Assembly (NCBI GenBank): GCA_963768425.1
Contig: CAVYHV010000017.1
Coordinates: 128,001-192,000, forward strand
DNA from: Candidatus Bathyarchaeota archaeon
GTDB taxonomy: Archaea > Thermoproteota > Bathyarchaeia > Bathyarchaeales > Bathycorpusculaceae
Direction: 5' to 3'
Length of the DNA stretch: 64,000 bases
Below the pieces are notes generated by a model. It did no database searches, was not told where the DNA came from, and worked only from the letters and a program-made list of their open reading frames with translations. Positions 18,321-57,826 of this stretch are shown piece after piece; the stretch's first letter is position 1, and the number at the start of each line of letters is the position of its first letter. Both the position numbers and the translations under genes were made by a program.

Positions 18321-18989
18321 GTGGCTCAATCCCGTGCGGCAACAATCATGAAGATACTGCAAGATACTTTAGCTTTGCCGAGGCTGGTTAAGCCGAAAGC
18401 TGACCCATTTGAAACATTGATTGTAACCATTATTTCACAGAACACGGCAGACACCAACACTGAGAGAGCCTTCGAAGCCTTATCGAAGCACTTCGAAATT
18501 ACCCCCCAAACGCTGGCTGGCGCTCAATTAAGCGAAATTGAAGATTGCCTTCACATTGCGGGCTTGTACCACAGTAAAGCCAAAGCAATACAGGCAGTCT
18601 CAAAAATCATTATTGAAAAATTTCAGGGCTCTCTTGCGTCAGTCTTGTCTAAGCCGCTTGATGAAGCGAGAAAGACGCTTATGGCGTTGCCAGGAGTAGG
18701 ACCGAAAACGGCAGACGTTGTGTTGCTTTTCTCAGCCAACCAACCCACAATTCCAGTGGACACCCATGTAAATCGCGTTTCTAAACGGCTTCATTTAGCC
18801 CCGGCAGACGGCGACTACGAGGCTGTTCGGTTGAGTCTCCAGTCGATTTTTAAGCCTAAGGATTACTTGGCGGTTCATCTGTTGTTGATTGCGCACGGCA
18901 GAAAGTTCTGCAAAGCAAGCTGCCCACATTGCCATGAGTGCCCAGTTTACGATTATTGCCCGTCAAACTTTTTGGGGGATAAAGCATGA
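18321..18989 (+). CDS. nth: Endonuclease III (HhH-GPD, 4Fe-4S)
   Basis: LPGVGPKTA, VDTHV, C-x6-C-x2-C-x5-C. Confidence 0.93.
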   Translation: MAQSRAATIMKILQDTLALPRLVKPKADPFETLIVTIISQNTADTNTERAFEALSKHFEITPQTLAGAQLSEIEDCLHIAGLYHSKAKAIQAVSKIIIEKFQGSLASVLSKPLDEARKTLMALPGVGPKTADVVLLFSANQPTIPVDTHVNRVSKRLHLAPADGDYEAVRLSLQSIFKPKDYLAVHLLLIAHGRKFCKASCPHCHECPVYDYCPSNFLGDKA

Positions 18990-49995: not shown

Positions 49996-50283
49996 TTGGA
50001 TGAGCTGGGGATACCAGAATTATCCATCGAGCAAAAAGAAGCCTTATGCCAAAAGGCGGAGGATGCAGCTAGAAAATGTCTCCTCGCCAAAGTTTCTTCT
50101 AAAATGGTTGACAAACTAGACATCAGTGTTGAAGCCGAAGGCACAAGGCCCCTCAAAGTCTCTGTAGAAGTAAACCTCCTGCTAACGCCGGAAGCTAAAG
50201 ACGTAGACGCTCAAGCTCTGGTTAAGGAGTCAACAAACGCCGCACATAGAGCGGTTGAAAACTTTTTGAGAAAATCTAAATGA
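49996..50283 (+). CDS. DUF3194-like protein
   Basis: Usual position between pfdB and a DHH gene; LDISVE..VEVNL. Confidence 0.6.
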   Translation: MDELGIPELSIEQKEALCQKAEDAARKCLLAKVSSKMVDKLDISVEAEGTRPLKVSVEVNLLLTPEAKDVDAQALVKESTNAAHRAVENFLRKSK

Positions 50284-51326
50284 ACGAATTTCAAAGTTTT
50301 CTGCAAATACTCAAGGAAAGCAAGGCATCTTTTGTTCTTTTGCTATGTCACCGTAGCGCTGATGCTGATGCCATCTGTTCAGCGTATGCTTTGCAAGGTT
50401 TGCTGAAGCGGTTCATGCCTGATGTTGTGTTTGAAGTCGGGTGTCCTCAAGGCGTCAACAAACCCTCCAAAGTGCTTCTTGAACGAATGCCAATAACAGT
50501 CAACTTGAATCCGAACATTGAATCGGCGGATGTGATTGTTTTTCTGGATTTAAACACAATAGACCAACTTGACCAAGTGGCTGAAACCATAAGAAGGTCG
50601 CCAGCACCTAAAATCATCGTTGACCACCATTACCCAAGCCTTCAAACCACTGAAATCTGCAAGCTCTGCATATTAGACCAGAAGGCAGCCGCTAACTGCG
50701 AAATAGTCTACAATCTGTATAGACAGGCGAAAGTCAAACCAAACTTCAACGAGGCAAAGGCATTATTTGTAGGAATAACTTTTGACACTAGGCATTTCGC
50801 ACTGGCAAGCGCGGCAACTCTTGCAATCGCGGCTAAACTTGTAACAGTTGGCATAGATGTTCAGGCGACGCTGCAAGAGTTTGCTTTACCTATTGACACT
50901 TCGGAACGCTTGGCAAAGCTGAAGGCGTGCAAAAGAGCCAAAATCGTCAGAGTAAACAACTGGATAATCGCGGTCTCGCATGTAAGTGCCTATCAAGCTG
51001 CAGCAGCAAAATCGCTAGTTGATTTAGGCGCACACGCCTCGGCCGTCGCAGGGCTCAAAAACGGAAAAATCGAGGTAAGCTTGCGTTGCACCCGCCAGTT
51101 CACCGAGGAGACTGGCGTCAACTTAGGAAAGGACATAGCGGCGCCTCTTGGCGAATTTCTGCAAGGAGTTGGTGGAGGACACGCCATGGCGGCAGGAGTA
51201 AGCGGCGCAGGCGAAATAGAACCTACTCTAAAACAGTGCCTCACGCTTATGAAACAGATCTTGCGAGCTTCTCATCGCCCTGCTTCAGCAGTCCTCTCGC
51301 AATATTCATCTTCAGAAAAAATCTGA
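50280..51326 (+). CDS. DHH/DHHA1 phosphoesterase
   Basis: HRSADAD, DHH, DTRHF, SLR, GGGHAMAAG. Confidence 0.9.
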   Translation: MNEFQSFLQILKESKASFVLLLCHRSADADAICSAYALQGLLKRFMPDVVFEVGCPQGVNKPSKVLLERMPITVNLNPNIESADVIVFLDLNTIDQLDQVAETIRRSPAPKIIVDHHYPSLQTTEICKLCILDQKAAANCEIVYNLYRQAKVKPNFNEAKALFVGITFDTRHFALASAATLAIAAKLVTVGIDVQATLQEFALPIDTSERLAKLKACKRAKIVRVNNWIIAVSHVSAYQAAAAKSLVDLGAHASAVAGLKNGKIEVSLRCTRQFTEETGVNLGKDIAAPLGEFLQGVGGGHAMAAGVSGAGEIEPTLKQCLTLMKQILRASHRPASAVLSQYSSSEKI

Positions 51327-51433
51327 GGAACGGATTCAGCTAGCGAATTTTCATTTTTGTTGTTTGGCATGGACTTTTCAACAAAGGTGGAAGATTGCCA
51401 AAGTTGGGTAGCTACGCTTAAATGAGCAAAGTC

Positions 51434-51441
51434 TCACGCTT
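51434..51441 (+). repeat. Left target-site duplication TCACGCTT
   Basis: Identical 8-mer at 56948-56955; each copy abuts a TIR. Confidence 0.9.
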
Positions 51442-51558
51442 GGTTCTGTGAAATAAACGTTACCAACCATACCCTTTTTTCGGGTTTTCCTTCATGTGAA
51501 ATTTCGTCACCTTTTAGATTTTTGGCAAAATCTAAATACTCATTTATTACAACTAAAA

Positions 51559-52419
51559 ATGCGGATGTCTTTGAAAAGGTATCAATTAAGCACGATGCTT
51601 CTCGTAGTAATATTAGTCGCTATTCTTTGGGTAGGGCTTTATCTGAAGTGGTACCAAATGAGTGACATTTTATCTTACATTCCTTATTTCATACTGACTG
51701 CTATTTCGGGGGTTATAATCTGGGGTCTGGGTAAAAACATTGAGAGCGCTTTAGGAAAGCAAACGCAAACAGAAAAAGATGAGAAGATTGCACCTTACAT
51801 TTTCAATCCAAATTTTAAGAATATCGAAGTTCACTTTTTAAAAAGCGAAAAGATGCCTGAAAGCCCTGAATACTCTCAGAGAAGGTACATTGGAAATAGC
51901 AAAACGCGACAAGCATATCACATGGATGAGTTACCAAGCTGGTTTAAACAAGAAATTATTGACCATAAGATAATTTGGTATTCTTATTCAAGTGAAAAAG
52001 TACTCAAAAGTTACATGATAGAAAACTTTAGTCCAATAGGTAATGTTGCTTCTCCTAAAGGGCTTGGTTTAGAAAATGTAAACGGTGAATGGAAAATTGA
52101 CAAACAAGATTCTGAATTATTGAAAAAACTTCACGGACAGAAACTCGAATATTTACAAATAGCAAACTTGGAACGGCTATCATTTTTTGGAAAGAAAAAA
52201 AGAGTTCTATTGGTCGATTTTGATGAAAAGAAAATCTGGCAGGCACCAGAATGCTTCCATGAATTAGTTGATTACGAGATAGTTTCTGGAGAAACTTATA
52301 GAATGGGTATATTTGATAACTGTAAAAGATGGTCTAAGAAGGAGTTTGGGTTCGAGTTTTTCAAAAAGCGTTATCCTGAAAGCAAACTAATTGTTAAGAA
52401 AATTACGGGCAACTCATAG
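51559..52419 (+). CDS. Two-TM-anchored hypothetical protein (cargo)
   Basis: Long AT-rich ORF with two N-terminal hydrophobic helices. Confidence 0.65.
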   Translation: MRMSLKRYQLSTMLLVVILVAILWVGLYLKWYQMSDILSYIPYFILTAISGVIIWGLGKNIESALGKQTQTEKDEKIAPYIFNPNFKNIEVHFLKSEKMPESPEYSQRRYIGNSKTRQAYHMDELPSWFKQEIIDHKIIWYSYSSEKVLKSYMIENFSPIGNVASPKGLGLENVNGEWKIDKQDSELLKKLHGQKLEYLQIANLERLSFFGKKKRVLLVDFDEKKIWQAPECFHELVDYEIVSGETYRMGIFDNCKRWSKKEFGFEFFKKRYPESKLIVKKITGNS

Positions 52420-52607
52420 CTTTTGTCATGCTTTGGTTGGTTCTGTTAACTTCATAGGTGATAAATCTACCTGTTACGAATCGCGTGATAATTTTGTTGC
52501 TTTGGAAATGGGTGTTAACTTTCGGGTGATGTATATTCGGAAGGGGATTTAAAAACTGGGGAAACTAAAAGTTCTGTAACGCAAGAAAACGGAAGGAGGT
52601 TGTAAAT

Positions 52608-52987
52608 TTACCCTTTAGGAGGCACAGCGTCGTAAGTATAATCAATGTCTAAACTTTTGAGAAGAGCCCAGTCCACAAGTTCCATTTTCTTAGGCGGTAT
52701 TTTTCCAGCTTGGTTTATCAAGCGACCTTTAGCTACAGTCTGAATTTGGTTGCAGAGTACCTAGACCATCATCTTTCAACCCTGTTTCGGAAGCTGTTAT
52801 AAAAACATTAACTTCGTGATCTTTATGTTTAGTACTGCTGGTTATGGCCGCCATAATTACGACTGTACTATGCTGGTTAGCAATATCATTTTGAATTACA
52901 ACCCATGGTCTAAGTTTTTTGGATTTCTCCACCTATAGGAGTCCCCTCTGCTACAAAAAAGATGTCTCCTCTACTGACTGGAATCAA
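52608..52987 (-). CDS. mazF: MazF/PemK endoribonuclease toxin (apparent frameshifts ~52922 and ~52760)
   Basis: Reconstructed: VSRGDIFFV..GGEI-KKLRPWVVIQNDIAN..AAITS..GL..LVLCNQIQTVAKGRL..AGKI..MELVDWALLKSL. Confidence 0.85.
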
Positions 52988-53324
52988 TGTCAATGTCGGA
53001 GTTCATCCCCTCACACTCTTTGGCTAAAGCCAAATCATCATCAGCTGATGCTTCATAACACTTAGCCATAAATTTGACCTCCTCTTCAGAGGCTCTTTTC
53101 TTTGTGAGGGGAACTGTTAAAGCAATTGGCATTGATTTGATTTCAGAATGGACTAACCAACTGTCTGACTTACCTAAAATACATTCTCTCGCAACAGTGT
53201 AAGCATTAGCGATGTTTTCAAAAGTAATCATCCTTTGAGATTTAAGCGTTTTCAATATTGTGAGCATATCAAACCGCATGACATCGCCTTTGTAATCGCA
53301 GAATTTATGCTCCTCAGTCATCAA
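52971..53324 (-). CDS. Putative antitoxin of the MazF homolog
   Basis: Overlaps the mazF start; acidic C-terminal helix MAKCYEASADDDLALAKE resembles MazE/EndoAI toxin-binding tails. Confidence 0.5.
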   Translation of the reverse strand: MMTEEHKFCDYKGDVMRFDMLTILKTLKSQRMITFENIANAYTVARECILGKSDSWLVHSEIKSMPIALTVPLTKKRASEEEVKFMAKCYEASADDDLALAKECEGMNSDIDIDSSQ

Positions 53325-53821
53325 TATTGAGTTTCTCCTATGAGGTTATGACTTCTCAAGAGTTTAAGCATTTGGTTAAAATCGTTTAATGAAACGCTAG
53401 GAATCTTTTTCCTAACTTTGCTGTAAATCTCGCCTTTTGATAAAGTAGGGTACATAGTATAGAGAAAATGAGTGACTGCAAGTTTTTCTAAGTAGTAAGA
53501 ATTATTTGAAATTGGATTAATAAATTCAAGAAACTCACAAAAACGTTGCTCTTTATTTCTGTCAGCGAATTTAACTGGAATTTCATAATTAGATTTAGTT
53601 AATTCATAAGCATCTCTGGTAAGATTTGGAGAATAAGGACCACGAAGATACCAACTAAATGAGTAACCGATGTTTAACCCAAACTGTTGCATAAGATAAA
53701 CGGTTTTTTGTAACACTAACCTAGAATCAAAATTCTTTTCATAATTATGACCGTTGAAATTCCCTATTCTAAGTAATAATCCACCGAGTGCAACCATCCT
53801 TTTATTTTCATCTGCACTCAT
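53321..53821 (-). CDS. YwgA/SocA(Panacea)-like wHTH protein
   Basis: SRLVLQKTVYL..GYSFSWYLRGPYSPNL..LEKLA motif. Confidence 0.65.
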   Translation of the reverse strand: MSADENKRMVALGGLLLRIGNFNGHNYEKNFDSRLVLQKTVYLMQQFGLNIGYSFSWYLRGPYSPNLTRDAYELTKSNYEIPVKFADRNKEQRFCEFLEFINPISNNSYYLEKLAVTHFLYTMYPTLSKGEIYSKVRKKIPSVSLNDFNQMLKLLRSHNLIGETQY

Positions 53822-53932
53822 GCTGTTTCAACCATAATATTAAAGTCCAATCGCATGCGTATTTGTGATATACGTTATTCTTGTATATAAGATGATTTCA
53901 CGTTTTAAAGAGTTATGTTGTCACAATCTGTA

Positions 53933-55062
53933 TTAACAGTCTTTGGAGCTGGATACAGATGCGTTTTGTATGAGGGTTATCCATTTATTTTTTCCTTCTA
54001 TTTTTATTCCGCATGCTTCGGAAGGGGTTTTGCCATCTAAGGCTTCATGAGGTCTAAAGTAGTTGTGGAACAATTGGTAACCTGTTAGGATTGCGGTGTC
54101 TTTGGTTTTTAGTCCTCGCATGACTATTTCTCGGTCTCGGATTTCACCATTCATCCTTTCCATTTTGTTATTGTTGTTTTTTGCGCTTGTGAATTTGATG
54201 CTTCTTATGTGGTTGGTGTTTGGGATAGATCTTGTTGAGCTGGCTTGGAAGTAAGCTGTATAAGCCATCTGTTATGAACGTTTCAGGTTTCTTTCCCATG
54301 AGGTAACTTGCTTTTGCAGAATAAGGTTCTTGCGTCATGCTTGTCTTTTGTGTCTGCTACTTCTTGAGCTATCCAAAAGCGGGTTTCATCATCCATCATG
54401 GCGAAGAGGTATTTCATGTTGCCTTTGACTTTTATCCATAGTTCGTCTGCTCTCCATGTGTCGCCGACGTTTGGCTCTATGGTTTCAACGTAGTCGTTCA
54501 TTAGTTTAATGTATTTTTTTATCCAGTTTAGGATTGTTCTGTAAGAGACTTCTACGCCTAAGAGTTTGAGTGACCGCATTGTGTTTCTTAGGCTTTCTCC
54601 GCTAAAGTATAGTTGCATGGCAGATGTGATTGCTTGAGGGTTATGCTTCATGCGTTCAAAGCCTAAGTTGAAAGTGAAGAATTTGTGGCAATCTTGGCAA
54701 TAGAATTTTTGAAGGTTTCCTGTCTTGTTTTTGCGTATTCCCTTCTTTATGAAGTTGCTTGAACCGCAAAAGATACATTCCGAAATGTTTTCTATGGGGA
54801 CTATTGTTCTTACTGCTACCTCTGCTCTTAGGGATTGTGAGAAGTTTACGGCGTGGATGTGTTTGCATTCTACATGTCGGTATTTGTTGTCTGGGCAATC
54901 GCATAGCCATTCTCCGTTAACTTTGTTAACGGTGTATTCGCCGTTGTCTGGATTGAGATTTAACGATGTAGAGGCATTTCGTCTATTCTTTTTACTTGCC
55001 CGTTCCGATTGGGCTATTGTTTGACCGCGTTCTTCTCTTGTGGTTGTTAGTCTTTGAGTCAT
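53933..55062 (-). CDS. IS6-like DDE transposase with SWIM and zinc-ribbon N-terminus (several apparent indels)
   Basis: CDCPD..CKHIHA (SWIM), CIFC..CQDC, HTH (SLRNT..SYRTILNW), WRADELW, YLFAMMDDETRF, NNKMERMNGEIRDR, HNYFRPHEAL. Confidence 0.85.
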
Positions 55063-55066
55063 GCTT

Positions 55067-55172
55067 ATACCCTCACATATACCTAATAGCATACCCATTA
55101 ATAAGCATTTAGGCATAGTGATAGGTATATTAATATACACCTTCCCCCTAAACAATACCCATAACAAGGTAT
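55067..55172. promoter_or_regulatory. ATACC/GGTAT repeat array in the divergent transposase-AbrB promoter region
   Basis: ATACC at 55067, 55079, 55091 (12-bp period) and 55155; GGTAT at 55124 and 55168. Confidence 0.5.
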
Positions 55173-55176
55173 AACA

Positions 55177-55359
55177 ATGGGAGAAATAACATTCCTAAAC
55201 AAAGCATCCCCAAAAACCGAATCCCTAAGAACAACCGTGCCAGCAAGCATAATCAAACAATTCGGCTTAACCGAATACGATAAACTAGAATGGATTCTCA
55301 AAGCAGAAGGCAGTGAATTAGTAATTATCGTTAAGCCTCAAAAAGGTGAAGTTAGGTAG
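55177..55359 (+). CDS. AbrB/MazE/SpoVT-type DNA-binding protein
   Basis: SLRTTVPASIIKQFGLTEYDKLEW. Confidence 0.8.
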   Translation: MGEITFLNKASPKTESLRTTVPASIIKQFGLTEYDKLEWILKAEGSELVIIVKPQKGEVR

Positions 55360-55361
55360 AG

Positions 55362-55781
55362 ATGGCTAGAGGAAAAGGCTTTGTTAATTATCTAGAAAAT
55401 CCTATTGTGGCTTTCCTATTTGTGGTAGCCTGTTTAGTGTTTATTGGTTGGTTATTGCCTGATTTTTGGATTTTTGGTTTTACAGCAATTTTTACCTATT
55501 TGGTTAGCGACATTCTGCTAAGTCTCATCATCAAGGGTGGAAACGGCATAGCGGTTATTCCAACTATTGACAACAAAACTAAACATAAAGGACACGCTTA
55601 CTTGGCATTTTTCATAGGAATGATTTTTGCAACAGTGTTTAGTGGGTTCTTTAATAACATTATTCTGTCAACAATGAAAGATTCAAATCAGTGGTTTTAT
55701 GCAGTTGTTATTGCGAGCTTTGGTTTAGGAATTGCTGTTTTTGCTGATCTTCAAGCCAGATTCTATGCTCATAACGAATGA
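55362..55781 (+). CDS. Four-TM membrane protein (cargo)
   Basis: Hydrophobic ORF directly after the AbrB gene. Confidence 0.6.
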   Translation: MARGKGFVNYLENPIVAFLFVVACLVFIGWLLPDFWIFGFTAIFTYLVSDILLSLIIKGGNGIAVIPTIDNKTKHKGHAYLAFFIGMIFATVFSGFFNNIILSTMKDSNQWFYAVVIASFGLGIAVFADLQARFYAHNE

Positions 55782-55963
55782 GAAACATCAAAGAACCGAA
55801 ACACACAGACAATCCCACGATAGTATTTACATCTGCCCATAGCGCAACTATAGAAAAGATGATAATGGCAAGAACCCCTAATACCATTATTTTTTCATGA
55901 GGTAAGAACTCTTCCCAGAAATCCTTAACTACTTTCAGGATTATCAGCAAAAGAAAAAGAGAA

Positions 55964-56158
55964 TTATTGTTTTCTTGGTTTATTCATGTCAACGTTTGGT
56001 AAGTCGAAACGGTTAGGCGCACTTAGCCACTGTTCAATATTTTTGGCTTTTGGAGCTTTCAAACTTTGGTCAATTGCTTTGGCGTGGGCGCTTCTTATAG
56101 CTTGAACCTTTCCTAGCCCTTCTAATCTGACTACCGTAACTAGAACCTTGTTTTCCAC
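55964..56158 (-). CDS. Small hypothetical protein (cargo)
   Basis: 64-aa ORF with AAGGTTGA SD-like sequence upstream. Confidence 0.4.
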   Translation of the reverse strand: MENKVLVTVVRLEGLGKVQAIRSAHAKAIDQSLKAPKAKNIEQWLSAPNRFDLPNVDMNKPRKQ

Positions 56159-56213
56159 GATAACTCAACCTTATCAACCTCAAAAGAAAAATAAAGAGCG
56201 TTGTTCGGTTGTT

Positions 56214-56816
56214 TTAAACAGTAGCTTCTTTTTGTGTTTGAACTAGAGGTTCTGATTCTTCCCATACCCTGTTAAAGAAATCTATCGCTTGAGTGATTAC
56301 GTCTTTGTTGTTGGAGTATATTCCAGCATCGAAACGTTCGCCTCCAAAACATTCGGTTTGAACATCTCCTGAACCAATAATGAGAATCTGTCTTTGAGGG
56401 ACACAGAATATTCGAGCATGTAACATGGGGTGTAATCTCACATCAGCTCCTGCTTTTTGTATCCTTTTTAGTGCATCTTTGTTTTTCTTGGTCTGAATTG
56501 CGGTTGCTGGGCTTATGATTTTGAATTGTTTAGCTACGGTTGTTAATTTGTTTAGCATCACTTGGTCAAAATAACCCATGACATAAAAAGTTTCATTGCT
56601 ATACATTCCACCATGCATGCCACCCATTCTTGGGTCAAACAAACCTTCTATAATTCCACTATAGGTTCTGATTTGTGGAGAGTTTTCAACAAATCTAGGT
56701 GCTAGTCCTTGAGGGTTTTCCTGTATCTGTCTCATTCTTGCCAGTTCTTGCTCTATTGTAATTATCCTTCTTCTGATGTCTTCCACAATTTGAGCTATCC
56801 CTTCGTTTTCAGGCAT
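56214..56816 (-). CDS. PLD-like domain protein with N-terminal coiled coil and degenerate HKD motif
   Basis: LHARIFCVPQRQILIIGSGD..DAGI..FFNRVWEES. Confidence 0.65.
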   Translation of the reverse strand: MPENEGIAQIVEDIRRRIITIEQELARMRQIQENPQGLAPRFVENSPQIRTYSGIIEGLFDPRMGGMHGGMYSNETFYVMGYFDQVMLNKLTTVAKQFKIISPATAIQTKKNKDALKRIQKAGADVRLHPMLHARIFCVPQRQILIIGSGDVQTECFGGERFDAGIYSNNKDVITQAIDFFNRVWEESEPLVQTQKEATV

Positions 56817-56947
56817 TTTTTACCCCTGAACTTTAATCATAGCTTTAAGTAGAAAAGATTTGCCTATGCTTTTCTTAGGTGACGGTTTTTCACAGAAAGA
56901 CAGGAAATCACCTATTCTTAGGTAGGTGACGTTAAATACACAGAACC

Positions 56948-56955
56948 TCACGCTT
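56948..56955 (+). repeat. Right target-site duplication TCACGCTT
   Basis: Identical to 51434-51441. Confidence 0.9.
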
Positions 56956-56974: not shown

Positions 56975-57826
56975 ATGGCTATAATCGAAACCAAAAACCT
57001 CACCTACACCTATCCAAGCGCAGCCAAACCGTCAATAGCCGAAGTATCCATCAAGGTTGAGAAAGGCGAATTCGTGCTTATTACGGGTCCAAGCGGCTGC
57101 GGAAAAACAACTTTGTGCCGATGCTTCAATGGGCTTATCCCTCATTTTTATCAGGGTGAGATGAAAGGAGAAATTACTGTTGCAGGCGAAGATGTCCTTA
57201 AACGCCATACTTACGAAATGGCTAAACACGTTGGGCTTGTGTTTCAAAACCCAGAAAACCAGCTGTTCGCCCTGTCAGTCGAGAAAGACGTGGCTTTCGG
57301 GCTGGAAAACCTCGGAGTTTCCAGACCTGAAATCCGAAAAAAAGTGGATTGGGCGCTAAACCAAACAGGCATTTACGATTTGCGCGAGCGCTCCCCGCAT
57401 GAAATCAGTGGTGGACAACAGCAACGCGTTGCAATTGCCGCTGTTCTGGCGATGGAACCCGAAATCATTGTGCTGGACGAGCCAACTTCTTTTCTTGATC
57501 CGTTGAGCGCACAGAAAATCTTTGATGTCATTTACGATTTAAACAGAAAACAGGGCATCACAGTTATTCTTGTCGAGCACAGACTTGATTTGACGGCAAA
57601 GTACGCGAACCACCTCATCGTTATGGATGAGGGAAAAGTGCGCTTTGAAGGCAACCCGAGAGAAATCCTAAGCTCAGAAGAAACACGCTTAATCGGAGTG
57701 GGCATTCCCAAAGCAACCCTGTTGTACAAAATGCTTAAAAAAGACGGTTTAAACCTGGACGGCAACACACCCCTTTCTTCAGAAGAGCTTGCTGACCAAC
57801 TGTTGGAGACACTTAGAGCAAAATGA
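56975..57826 (+). CDS. ecfA1: ECF transporter ATPase A1
   Basis: GPSGCGKTT, FQNPENQ, SGGQQQR, DEPT. Confidence 0.92.
   Translation: MAIIETKNLTYTYPSAAKPSIAEVSIKVEKGEFVLITGPSGCGKTTLCRCFNGLIPHFYQGEMKGEITVAGEDVLKRHTYEMAKHVGLVFQNPENQLFALSVEKDVAFGLENLGVSRPEIRKKVDWALNQTGIYDLRERSPHEISGGQQQRVAIAAVLAMEPEIIVLDEPTSFLDPLSAQKIFDVIYDLNRKQGITVILVEHRLDLTAKYANHLIVMDEGKVRFEGNPREILSSEETRLIGVGIPKATLLYKMLKKDGLNLDGNTPLSSEELADQLLETLRAK

Follow-up and report, generated by a model that had tools for sequence, protein, structure and literature searches.

The IS6 family is the textbook example of insertion sequences whose transport of foreign genes is confined to pseudo-compound structures. The consulted sections of a review of the family (PMC7986276) describe them as elements of 0.7-0.9 kb (the longest 1.76 kb) with one ORF, short ends (15-20 bp) with GG tips and cTGTt and caaa motifs, and an 8-bp target site duplication (TSD), and state that foreign genes are carried only between two directly repeated copies. 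The same sections describe clades h and i, which have a zinc finger and include clostridial ISCpe7, and list ISDsp3 of Dehalococcoides, which has one hypothetical passenger, as the sole 'transporter IS' (tIS) of IS6. In unit transposons of the Tn3 family, toxin-antitoxin modules lie beside the transposition genes, and the consulted part of PMC7157771 cites a proposed role for them in regulation or stabilisation. Among archaeal integrated elements said to carry cargo, the aloposons of Heimdallarchaeia integrate at tRNA genes and have tandem giant genes and a ParA-like gene, according to the consulted text of PMC8813620.

We analysed a 64-kb stretch of DNA, here called the window (GCA_963768425.1, contig CAVYHV010000017.1, 128,001-192,000, forward strand); all coordinates are positions within it. 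With a probability of about 0.88, the segment 51442-56947 is a unit transposon ('transporter IS') of an IS6-related, passenger-carrying family, inserted by DDE transposition in the DHH-ecfA1 intergenic spacer with duplication of 8 bp.

The element in the DHH-ecfA1 spacer

The element is a low-GC segment of 5,506 bp lying between a DHH/DHHA1 phosphoesterase gene (50280..51326, plus strand; orthologues in 56/60 same-genus genomes) and an ecfA1-type ABC ATPase gene (56975..57826, plus strand). A preliminary description of this DNA had claimed a perfect 8-bp TSD and terminal inverted repeats of 19/23 identity, and both were recovered. The sequence TCACGCTT was found at 51434-51441 and, as an exact match, at 56948-56955, with a chance probability of 1 in 65,536 at fixed junctions, while 51442-51464 differed from the reverse complement of 56925-56947 at 4/23 positions (81% identity when extended to 27 nt). 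The left repeat (51442..51468, plus strand) begins GGTTCTGTGAAATAAACGTTACC, and the right repeat (56921..56947, minus strand) contains a TTAAAT sequence (56932-56937) 10 nt from the TSD; the insertion cut ecfA1 from its upstream TTAAAT box at 51418-51423. Searching the 64-kb window for GGTTCTGTG gave two matches, both at the element ends, with 0.47 expected, and no sequence in the whole 2.96-Mb genome matches the left end better than the right end, which ties with one other. The other genome match with four mismatches to the left end (window 18422-18444) lies inside an ORF and was taken as chance. The GC content drops from about 0.47 to 0.32-0.40 with boundaries exactly at the two ends, and averages 0.372 for the element versus 0.456 for its own contig.

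At both ends the end motif recurs once more in a subterminal position. The left copy (51490..51512, plus strand; ..CATGTGAAAT..CGTCACC) pairs with the right copy (56877..56899, minus strand); the former has two half-site mismatches and went uncounted in the family-wide scan described below, and the latter was counted there as TGTGAAAAACCGTCAC at +54. A further, internal end of another subtype is located at 52439..52530 (plus strand) and is 19/24 identical to both ends of the related element L048.

The empty site that the preliminary description had suggested looking for was found. Both flanks were contiguous in 28 of 29 same-genus DHH loci, with a single T[C/A]ACGCTT copy, and the junction was in exact register in 22 of these 28; the remaining locus ended short of the insertion site, and all 28 comparable loci were uninterrupted. 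In the soil-metagenome run X2, a 329-nt contig connects 51432 directly with 56947, without a mismatch and with one TSD copy, skipping 5,514 bases; an empty allele thus exists. Two contigs of run X4 carry the same flank-to-flank joint. Contigs of 151 to 211 nt from X1, X2 and X3 correspond to parts of the element interior and differ from it at one position at most; contigs crossing the occupied junction were not seen in the four metagenome runs, so these matching pieces could sit elsewhere there. The exact empty allele is consistent with the recent insertion suggested earlier.

The transposase and its relationship to IS6

The window element has one transposase locus in a central position (53933..55062, minus strand), with SWIM, zinc-ribbon, HTH and DDE regions, and its product is 67-69% identical to the intact transposase P0001 of a sister element. 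The single central transposase of the preliminary description therefore stood as regards the one locus and all four regions, but not as an intact ORF, since five one-base insertions break the frame as assembled. All catalytic motifs are present and spread over different frames, which run 1, 2, 0, 1 near the N-terminus and are followed by two +1 shifts near the second catalytic Asp. When the frames were restored, no stop codon was found, and the family motifs were as similar as the rest of the gene. No contig of the metagenome runs compared covered the five insertion sites at full identity. The insertions may mark a real pseudogene or a consensus artefact, and the copy's own mobility depends on their being real; given the broken transposase, the copy may be dead.

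The profile matches of the window transposase were weak (DDE_Tnp_IS240, 1.6e-5 and 0.0038; SWIM, 0.0063), and the intact sister gave DDE_Tnp_IS240 at 1.4e-17, SWIM at 3.8e-5 and the IS1/IS1595 zinc domain at 1.2e-6. P0001 scored 64.6 bits against Pfam PF13610 (cut-off 27), and matched the NCBIfam IS6 model at 4.8e-34 over positions 1-201 of 202, ahead of the IS1 model at 1.5e-13. It lies below the cut-off of the curated NCBI IS6 equivalog NF033587 (117.8 versus 125 bits), and IS481 and IS3 models also score on it. In a tblastn search against plasmids, all 25 matches listed were genes annotated IS6, at 22-33% identity (best bacterial match about 32%), and a relative at 69% identity carries the NCBI name 'IS6 family transposase'. 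The relationship to IS6 proposed earlier is thus borne out by IS6 being the best model, ahead of IS1, and by the annotation of the 25 plasmid matches listed. Among 57 full-length family transposases, SWIM was found in 57, the zinc ribbon in 56, the first Asp in 57, the second Asp in 50, and the Glu with K/R at +7 in 55; public data hold 5,512 homologous proteins at E<=1e-10. Judged by its sequence, the transposase is of an IS6-like type extended at the N-terminus by SWIM and zinc-ribbon regions, and this zinc-finger extension resembles that of IS6 clades h and i as described in the consulted sections of PMC7986276.

Passenger genes and related archaeal elements

Eight or nine further ORFs surround the window transposase, in agreement with the roughly eight passengers counted before. 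At the left end, a 307-aa passenger ORF with N-terminal hydrophobic segments (51496..52419, plus strand) has a homologue in the end-proximal gene of L046; it had no match in Pfam, NCBIfam, PADLOC or PHROG, and its Atlas leads were all under 0.9. It is followed by a truncated PemK/MazF-like toxin fragment of 67 aa (52729..52932, minus strand; profile positions 18-69 of 109, 5.5e-11; PHROG MazF-like, 3.9e-8). A 117-aa ORF (52971..53324, minus strand), without a family match in Pfam, NCBIfam, PADLOC or PHROG, overlaps by 4 nt the stop of the upstream 166-aa ORF (53321..53821, minus strand), and the two possibly form a two-gene module; the 166-aa product resembles the C-terminal, non-macrodomain part of the antitoxin DarG (PADLOC, 2.4e-7, profile positions 173-226 of 329; NCBIfam, 3e-4). 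Divergent from the transposase across a 114-nt spacer, a 60-aa predicted AbrB/MazE-fold DNA-binding protein is encoded at 55177..55359 (plus strand; PF04014, 2.1e-5), and directly 3' of it lies the gene of a 139-aa predicted membrane protein (55362..55781, plus strand) with homologues at the same position in L039 and L085. The core block of these two genes and the transposase is 72% identical to that of L085. A 64-aa ORF (55964..56158, minus strand) matched no profile library searched and belongs to a conserved family with the motif AKAID.SLKAP.AKNIEQWLSAPNRFDLPNVD, found in 6/62 elements of the family. The last passenger (56214..56816, minus strand) encodes a 200-aa PLD-like (PLDc_2) putative nuclease or phosphodiesterase at 2.4e-5, below the Pfam cut-off; at the same locus, the G116 element has a PLD gene that is 85% identical to it in DNA sequence. 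The profile search found neither an integrase nor a resolvase or Tn3-type transposase among the window ORFs.

Other copies of the ends, which the preliminary description had suggested searching for, were found in the same genome: a 3,275-bp sister with the intact transposase P0001, 45-nt perfect ends and the TSD CTTAAAGA, and C3, a 3,180-bp derivative with a transposase remnant alone and a 7/8 TSD. G116 is a unit of 1,097 bp consisting of an end, a PLD gene and an end. Like mobile insertion cassettes, C3 and G116 enclose cargo in family ends but lack a functional transposase, and we regard them as derivatives within the archaeal family rather than a separate kind. A second copy of the window element was found neither in its own genome nor in 119 other genomes of the genus, where the transposase block had at best a 78% match and the PLD gene with its end an 85% match.

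Elements were delimited by their ends and a perfect 8-bp TSD, C3 (7/8) being the exception. This gave 62 unique elements of 2,165-8,093 bp (median 3,316; none IS-sized) in Bathyarchaeia, Nitrososphaeria, Methanoperedens, Thermoplasmata and an Asgard archaeon, 61 of them built like the window one with ends and 8-bp TSD around homologous transposase loci. The ends of homologous transposases are therefore distant rather than close. GG-started ends with a perfect 8-bp TSD were obtained at 15/20 and then at 49/80 loci, versus 1/80 and 2/80 in laxer controls; these controls are the better test of the TSD because the 62 elements were themselves selected by the 8-bp rule. Under the strict rule no ends were found at 31/80 loci, and three distant homologues (36-41% identity) had none by any rule applied. 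The subterminal copy of the end motif was present at +30 to +59 in 65/124 ends (permuted mean 17.9, maximum 34) and absent by pattern search in 22/62 elements. A small AbrB, RHH or zinc-ribbon gene is divergent from the transposase in 37/62 elements, and the other 25 have no recognisable small DNA-binding gene. One transposase is accompanied by 2-10 other genes, among them restriction-modification, toxin-antitoxin-like and nuclease genes. This cargo differs even among close transposases (2,680 versus 5,720 bp; 4,629, 6,230 and 8,093 bp). As in a tIS, passengers unneeded for transposition lie between the ends.

With IS6 (IS26, IS257) the family shares an IS6/IS240-type DDE transposase with HTH, the 8-bp TSD and, in part, the end sequence: GG and TCTGT are present, and the 'caaa' position reads GAAA, GAAG or CAAG. 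Unlike IS6, it combines one transposase with 2-10 other genes over 2.2-8.1 kb, has the subterminal motif copy as a putative second binding site and a companion predicted DNA-binding gene, and lives in archaeal hosts; the window element (5,506 bp), like all 62, exceeds the length and single-ORF limits of IS6. Matches between family ends frequently extend beyond 24 nt, and the second copy frequently accompanies them, features that the consulted sections of the IS6 review (PMC7986276) do not describe. Since one transposase and its cargo lie inside one pair of ends, the structure argues against the rule that IS6 passengers travel only between two direct IS copies. ISDsp3, going by its description in those sections (PMC7986276), likewise has an IS6-type element with a passenger inside its ends, but with one passenger and one copy, whereas the archaeal family comprises at least 62 delimited elements with changing multi-gene cargo. 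One end pair, passengers and a small antitoxin-type gene adjoining and divergent from the transposase recall the Tn3 family (PMC7157771, consulted part), and the aloposons have archaeal hosts and reported cargo in common with the present family, with no apparent similarity in ends, size, duplication or enzyme in the consulted text of PMC8813620. The archaeal transposase is about 370 aa and IS6-like, the TSD is 8 bp, and the profile search of the window ORFs gave no resolvase. Tn3 itself combines a transposase of about 1,000 aa with 38-bp ends, a duplication of 5 bp, and a resolvase with a res site. The full-text literature search found no published description of the family; it apparently is a large, undescribed family of IS6-related multi-passenger transposons with one pair of ends. 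The class of cargo-carrying IS6-related archaeal transposons proposed earlier is supported by the ends, the TSD, the empty site and the 61 further elements.

Proposed mechanism, rival readings and significance

We infer catalysis, site binding, cointegrate formation and AbrB regulation from sequence, as proposed parts of a mechanism. The transposase would bind a two-part site, TGTnAA followed after 3-6 nt by an element-specific half-site, occurring twice in direct order at each end; it would pair both ends and join their 3' ends to a target cut with an 8-bp stagger, so that all DNA between the ends would move together as a single segment. The analogy of IS26 and IS257 makes a replicative route through a cointegrate and its resolution by host recombination probable, with cut-and-paste as the alternative route. 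The divergent AbrB-fold gene most likely represses the shared promoter region, and together with the following partner gene, where present, may act as an addiction module. Cargo could be acquired through a second, more distal end with the same polarity, as with 52439 and 51442 around the 307-aa gene, or by exchange between elements with a common conserved core.

The window copy could instead be a dead relic, an old insertion with a true transposase pseudogene, immobile, the empty alleles belonging to lineages never invaded. The five frame breaks, ends mismatched at 4/23 positions next to the sister's 45-nt perfect ends, the truncated PemK fragment and the lack of a second copy in its own genome or the 119 others of the genus point that way, but we consider it unlikely. 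The empty allele matches the flanks without a mismatch over 329 nt; none of the 29 species compared comes as close, which makes the presence/absence difference a young one. Moreover, since all breaks are one-base insertions and the restored frames are stop-free with their motifs kept, very recent damage or a consensus artefact fits better than long decay, and imperfect ends are also common with intact transposases (e.g. 17/24 in L093 and L153).

A composite or nested origin, with several family elements or solo ends trapping cargo like IS26-type pseudo-compound structures, bears on the earlier label 'non-composite', which holds for the one transposase in one end pair but not for the 307-aa gene, which sits between two same-orientation ends. 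The internal end 52439-52530 has the polarity of the outer left end and brackets this gene, and similar double ends occur in L090, L099, L101, L109 and L146 (19-23 of 24) and in G116. Such an origin is nevertheless improbable for the whole element: only one transposase locus and one full element were found, the outer end pair is the one bordered by the TSD, the right end matches the outer left end at 19/23 while the inner end agrees over the first 8 nt only, and elements without an internal end still hold 1-5 kb of extra genes. Equally improbable is a separate DDE family, kin to IS1, IS481 or IS3, with a cut-and-paste or copy-out-paste-in route, to which IS6 cointegrate biology would not apply. 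The IS6 score under the NCBIfam cut-off, the IS1/IS1595-type zinc domain, the scores of IS1, IS481 and IS3 models, the 22-33% identity to plasmid IS6 transposases, and a size, accessory gene and subterminal sites unlike IS6 in the consulted sections of PMC7986276 favour it; the IS6 model is nonetheless best by 20 orders of magnitude in E-value with an end-to-end match, the 8-bp TSD and GG..cTGT tips are as described for IS6 there (PMC7986276), and the 69%-identical relative bears the IS6 name. That chance repeats surround a genomic island which arrived otherwise, by an integrase or homologous recombination, has a negligible probability: the repeat search does list many short repeats, but the profile search gave no integrase among the window ORFs, the empty site is exact, and the same ends with 8-bp TSD recur at 61 other homologous loci versus 1-2 of 80 in controls.

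On the reading as an IS6-related unit transposon, we tentatively suggest, at somewhat below even odds, a distinct and widespread family of genuine unit transposons, native to archaea and derived from IS6, with its own multi-site ends and a dedicated small DNA-binding regulator, which would be a main shuttle by which soil and sediment archaea exchange restriction-modification, toxin-antitoxin and nuclease genes. The archaea concerned are Bathyarchaeia, ammonia-oxidising Nitrososphaeria, Methanoperedens and Asgard. Bathyarchaeota are reported to lack CRISPR-Cas in the consulted part of PMC12669027. The intact 3.3-kb sister is small enough for in vitro work, which would bear on the question of IS6-type end synapsis. 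A 2019 survey of thaumarchaeal mobile elements noted that passenger-carrying DNA transposons were undetected in archaea (PMC6563490); the thousands of homologous transposases would fill this gap if they regularly carry defence or addiction genes in one end pair, and the family would then offer uncultivated soil archaea a concrete means of gene flow.

Ends, empty site and insertion locus of the window element

The window element (51442-56947, 5,506 bp) lies between the DHH gene and ecfA1, and we found the 8-bp sequence TCACGCTT at both of its junctions (51434-51441 and 56948-56955). The inverted ends adjoin this duplication, begin with GGTTCTGTG and match at 19 of 23 positions, or over 27 nt at 81%. 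Within the 64-kb window the 9-mer end tip was found only at these two ends; a similar sequence at 18422-18444, with 4 mismatches, was set aside as a chance match because an ORF of 222 aa encloses it. About 47 nt further in from each tip, the end motif is repeated once more in direct orientation (51490-51512 and 56877-56899). GC content falls from about 0.47 in the flanks to 0.32-0.40 exactly between the ends, and the mean is 0.372 for the element versus 0.456 for its contig. A single minus-strand transposase locus and eight or nine further ORFs occupy the interior. The duplication, the inverted ends and a lone transposase with about 8 passenger ORFs had all been claimed in the preliminary description; these results indicate that the element is real and support that interpretation.

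Orthologues of the DHH gene were detected in 56 of 60 other genomes of the genus. Among 29 DHH loci compared, the window flanks were contiguous in 28, with one T[C/A]ACGCTT between them, and the 29th ends short of the insertion site. The register was exact at 22 of these empty sites and off by 1-3 nt at the other 6, owing to small nearby indels. In one relative (locus L058), 45 nt of left flank, the 8-mer and the right flank read identically to the window. Four public metagenome runs (X1-X4) were then aligned to the window region. A 329-nt contig of X2 joins 51432 to 56947 with 0 mismatches and omits 5,514 bases, the length of the element and a single duplication copy together. X4, from the same study as X2, contained two contigs with the identical empty joint, one of which has an exact left-flank match. 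Contigs of 151 to 211 nt from X1, X2 and X3 align to the element interior with at most 1 mismatch; since no occupied-junction contig was seen in X1-X4, these interior pieces cannot be assigned to the window site in their samples. The insertion is therefore polymorphic at a finer scale than any of the species representatives compared. The empty allele, which the preliminary description asked to be sought in relatives or reads, was present in relatives and in metagenome contigs, and together with the fine-scale polymorphism it fits the proposed recent insertion.

The DHH-ecfA spacer is a repeated target. Genome G116 carries a 3,480-bp family element without transposase at a different site of this locus, at the 3' end of DHH (L177, 7534-11013; duplication TTGAAGCG). 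In the same position G013 (L059) holds a transposase fragment and a family end; G064 (L070) has a family-like end at the equivalent place, and two further relatives (L056 and L066) have 0.9-1.1 kb of additional DNA. An X3 contig from a relative omits 174 nt corresponding to window 51224-51397, and relative to other species the C-terminus of the window DHH gene is longer and divergent, with the spacer enlarged by about 110 nt; the difference at 51224-51397 may be what remains of a previous event in this hot spot. The element also separates a TTAAAT box (51418-51423), upstream of ecfA1, from the ATG at 56975. Its right end carries ACGTTAAAT (56932-56937), which lies 10 nt from TCACGCTT, just as the native ACGCTTAAAT does, and because this spacing is kept, the right end may substitute for the displaced ecfA1 promoter element. 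This AT-rich variant of the right end is atypical of the family.

The transposase, the conserved core and the cargo of the window element

As assembled, the window transposase is spread over several frames. In the N-terminal region, IAQS, NGQVKRIDEM, LYIVKSQS and NGEYTV are read in frames 1, 2, 0 and 1, and two further +1 shifts lie on either side of the ITDG motif, the site of the second catalytic Asp. Each of the five breaks is an insertion of one base; once the frames are restored they are free of stop codons, every motif is kept, and the adjoining genes are intact. No contig in X1-X4 spans the five breaks at full identity. This pattern fits long decay no better than it fits very recent damage or a consensus artefact limited to a repeated gene. 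The same genome also encodes an intact transposase, P0001 (371 aa), which is 67-69% identical to the window transposase. It matched Pfam DDE_Tnp_IS240 (1.4e-17), SWIM (3.8e-5) and an IS1/IS1595-type zinc domain (1.2e-6), the NCBIfam IS6 model over its full length (4.8e-34; 117.8 bits, slightly below the cut-off of 125) and the NCBIfam IS1 model (1.5e-13). Matches on plasmids comprised 2,018 records, all below 60% identity; among those listed, 25 of 25 fell on IS6-annotated genes, and the top one, of clostridial ISCpe7 type, shared about 32% identity. A relative with 69% identity is named 'IS6 family transposase' by NCBI, and a PDB sequence search with the transposase gave zero matches.

The core of the window element consists of a 139-aa membrane protein, an AbrB protein and the transposase, and is 72% identical to that of element L085 over 2 kb. 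A minus-strand frame antisense to the AbrB gene (55098-55301) is open in several elements (the window element, L038 and L039), and in L038 it is fused with the transposase ORF (480 aa). An 80-aa minus-strand ORF containing hydrophobic stretches (55708-55950) overlaps the 139-aa gene at its 3' end; it could encode another small membrane protein or could be spurious.

The cargo comprises a PLD-like protein, a 166-aa protein similar to the C-terminal region of DarG and a 117-aa partner whose ORF overlaps it, a truncated MazF-like fragment, a 64-aa member of a conserved family, and a 307-aa gene (51496..52419, plus strand). Proteins of 64-172 aa with the motif ..LKAP.AKNIEQWLSAPNRFDLPNVD lie near one end of 6 elements (window 55964-56158; L001 4730-5209; L039, L042, L085 and L096) and read inward from the nearer end in the 5 that were positioned, L096 not among them; they had no match in any library searched. 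Atlas searches with a 159-aa conserved protein and with the 307-aa ORF gave no usable match. The 307-aa gene is bracketed by the outer left end and an internal end at 52439-52530, which has three sites and matches the L048 element ends at 19/24. Such an extra internal end, with polarity equal to one outer end, occurs in 6 elements. In 119 other genomes of the genus we found no closer copy of the window element, except for a partial case in G116: its 3,480-bp element includes a 1,097-bp unit in which two ends enclose a PLD gene. This unit shares 85% identity with the window PLD gene and right end, and its left end is also window-like.

Census and shared anatomy of the family

Two further elements reside in the same genome. 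The first (C9:92838-96112, 3,275 bp) has 45-nt perfect ends, the duplication CTTAAAGA and an intact transposase; the other (C3:11689-14868, 3,180 bp) has a 7/8 duplication and only a 61-aa transposase remnant. Two genes of the C3 element (L002, 2057-4138) match virus protein families of unknown function, phrog_22469 (8.8e-60) and phrog_27163 (3.1e-12). Homologous transposases occurred in 17 of the 36 genus genomes first sampled, and a scan of one genome per species confirmed 259 relatives, whose titles are mostly Bathyarchaeia but also include Nitrosopumilus, Nitrosotalea, Nitrosocosmicus, Methanoperedens, Methanoregulaceae, Thermoplasmata and Asgard lineages.

To delimit the elements, flanks were scanned for GG-started inverted ends of at least 17/24 abutting a perfect 8-bp duplication. 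This rule was satisfied at 15/20 and 49/80 loci, with essentially a single candidate per locus, versus 1/80 and 2/80 in two laxer controls. After 5 duplicates were dropped, 62 elements of 2,165-8,093 bp (median 3,316) remained, and none measured 1.2-1.5 kb, the size expected for the transposase alone. The homologous transposases are thus bounded by distant ends, and the other copies of the ends sought on the strength of the preliminary description enclose differing cargo. Loci failing the rule were frequently on short contigs or showed well-matched ends but lacked a duplication in register, and a rescan of 36 loci recovered end pairs of at least 17/24 at 10. In L100, L105, L110 and L133 the ends match at 22-24 of 24 and an in-register duplication is absent, and in L132, L135 and L164 the duplication is one base out of register; the 62-element set leaves out these seven. 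L110 (4746-7780; ends at 22/24) lies between CGATTAAA and TTTAATCG, which are mutually reverse complementary and form a 16-bp palindrome with no direct duplication. For the distant homologues L052-L054 (36-41% identity), ends were not found under strict or relaxed rules.

A quick tree of 57 transposases separated a Bathyarchaeia clade (30 rows) from a Nitrososphaerota-dominated clade (27 rows). Family members (L103, L111, L113; P0061) lie on 4-17 kb contigs from bins labelled Pirellulales, Saccharibacteria, Limnocylindrales and Patescibacteria; because they are nested among Bathyarchaeia copies on this tree, mis-binning appears more likely than bacterial hosts. Close neighbours on the tree differ in element size, so the cargo changes more quickly than the enzyme.

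We also scanned the subterminal regions for a two-part site, in which TGTnAA is followed after 3-6 nt by the element's own half-site, and used half-sites permuted among elements as the null. A second site at +30 to +59 was found at 65 of 124 ends (permuted mean 17.9, maximum 34): at both ends of 25 elements, one end of 15 and neither end of 22. An ungapped subterminal-repeat test gave no separation from the internal control (means 10.3 versus 9.6 of 18). Directly upstream of the transposase, 37 of the 62 elements have a divergent companion gene of 45-90 aa (Pfam E<=0.01), of the AbrB/MazE/PrlF/SymE-fold (22), ribbon-helix-helix (10), zinc-ribbon (4) or DUF7557 (1) type. A 120-220-aa partner of varying family often comes next; in L041 and L099, the two shortest AbrB-bearing elements, the companion stands without a partner and adjoins the end. 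The family cargo includes five large methylase/restriction fusion enzymes, a restriction enzyme of Tsp45I type accompanied by its methylase, a methylase fused to Mrr, and proteins of the NYN, HEPN, Panacea, GNAT and DUF3800 types, together with a TATA-binding protein and many unknowns; PADLOC and PHROGs searches left the majority without a name. The TATA-binding-protein gene (Pfam TBP, 1.3e-29) is located in L091 (1015-8652, 7.6 kb) together with a type I-like methylase and a specificity subunit.

Relation to known transposons and proposed mechanism

A review gives the length of IS6 members as 0.7-0.9 kb and at most 1.76 kb, places zinc-finger clades in Clostridia and names ISDsp3 as the sole passenger-carrying member (PMC7986276). 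The preliminary description had proposed an IS6-related class of cargo transposons. The relation to IS6 and the carriage of cargo inside one pair of ends held, whereas the size, single ORF and composite-only habit of IS6 do not apply: the family is IS6-related and departs from IS6 in these three features. An account of the thaumarchaeal mobilome describes IS-like transposons with one or two genes and states that passenger-carrying transposons had not been detected in archaea (PMC6563490). Aloposons, as described, differ from this family (PMC8813620). The main text of a paper on Atabeyarchaeia mentions five IS-like elements without detail (PMC11529989); we found a 6,159-bp family element (L101) in its genome, and only IS605 rows matched IS6 in the supplementary tables searched. 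A limited search of open-access full text returned no description of the family.

The window element has the family ends, an 8-bp duplication and genes carried as one block, and many relatives likewise carry different cargo as one block. We propose that the transposase would use its zinc and HTH domains to recognise the repeated two-part sites and would catalyse DDE strand transfer at an 8-bp stagger. The analogy of IS26-type elements (PMC7986276) suggests a replicative fusion that host recombination would then resolve, and a long element would offer more homology for that step. The companion DNA-binding protein would govern the divergent promoters. Toxin-antitoxin pairs have been proposed to stabilise Tn3-family transposons (PMC7157771), and the companion and its partner may stabilise these elements in a comparable manner. 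Extra outer ends may be one way in which the family gains cargo.
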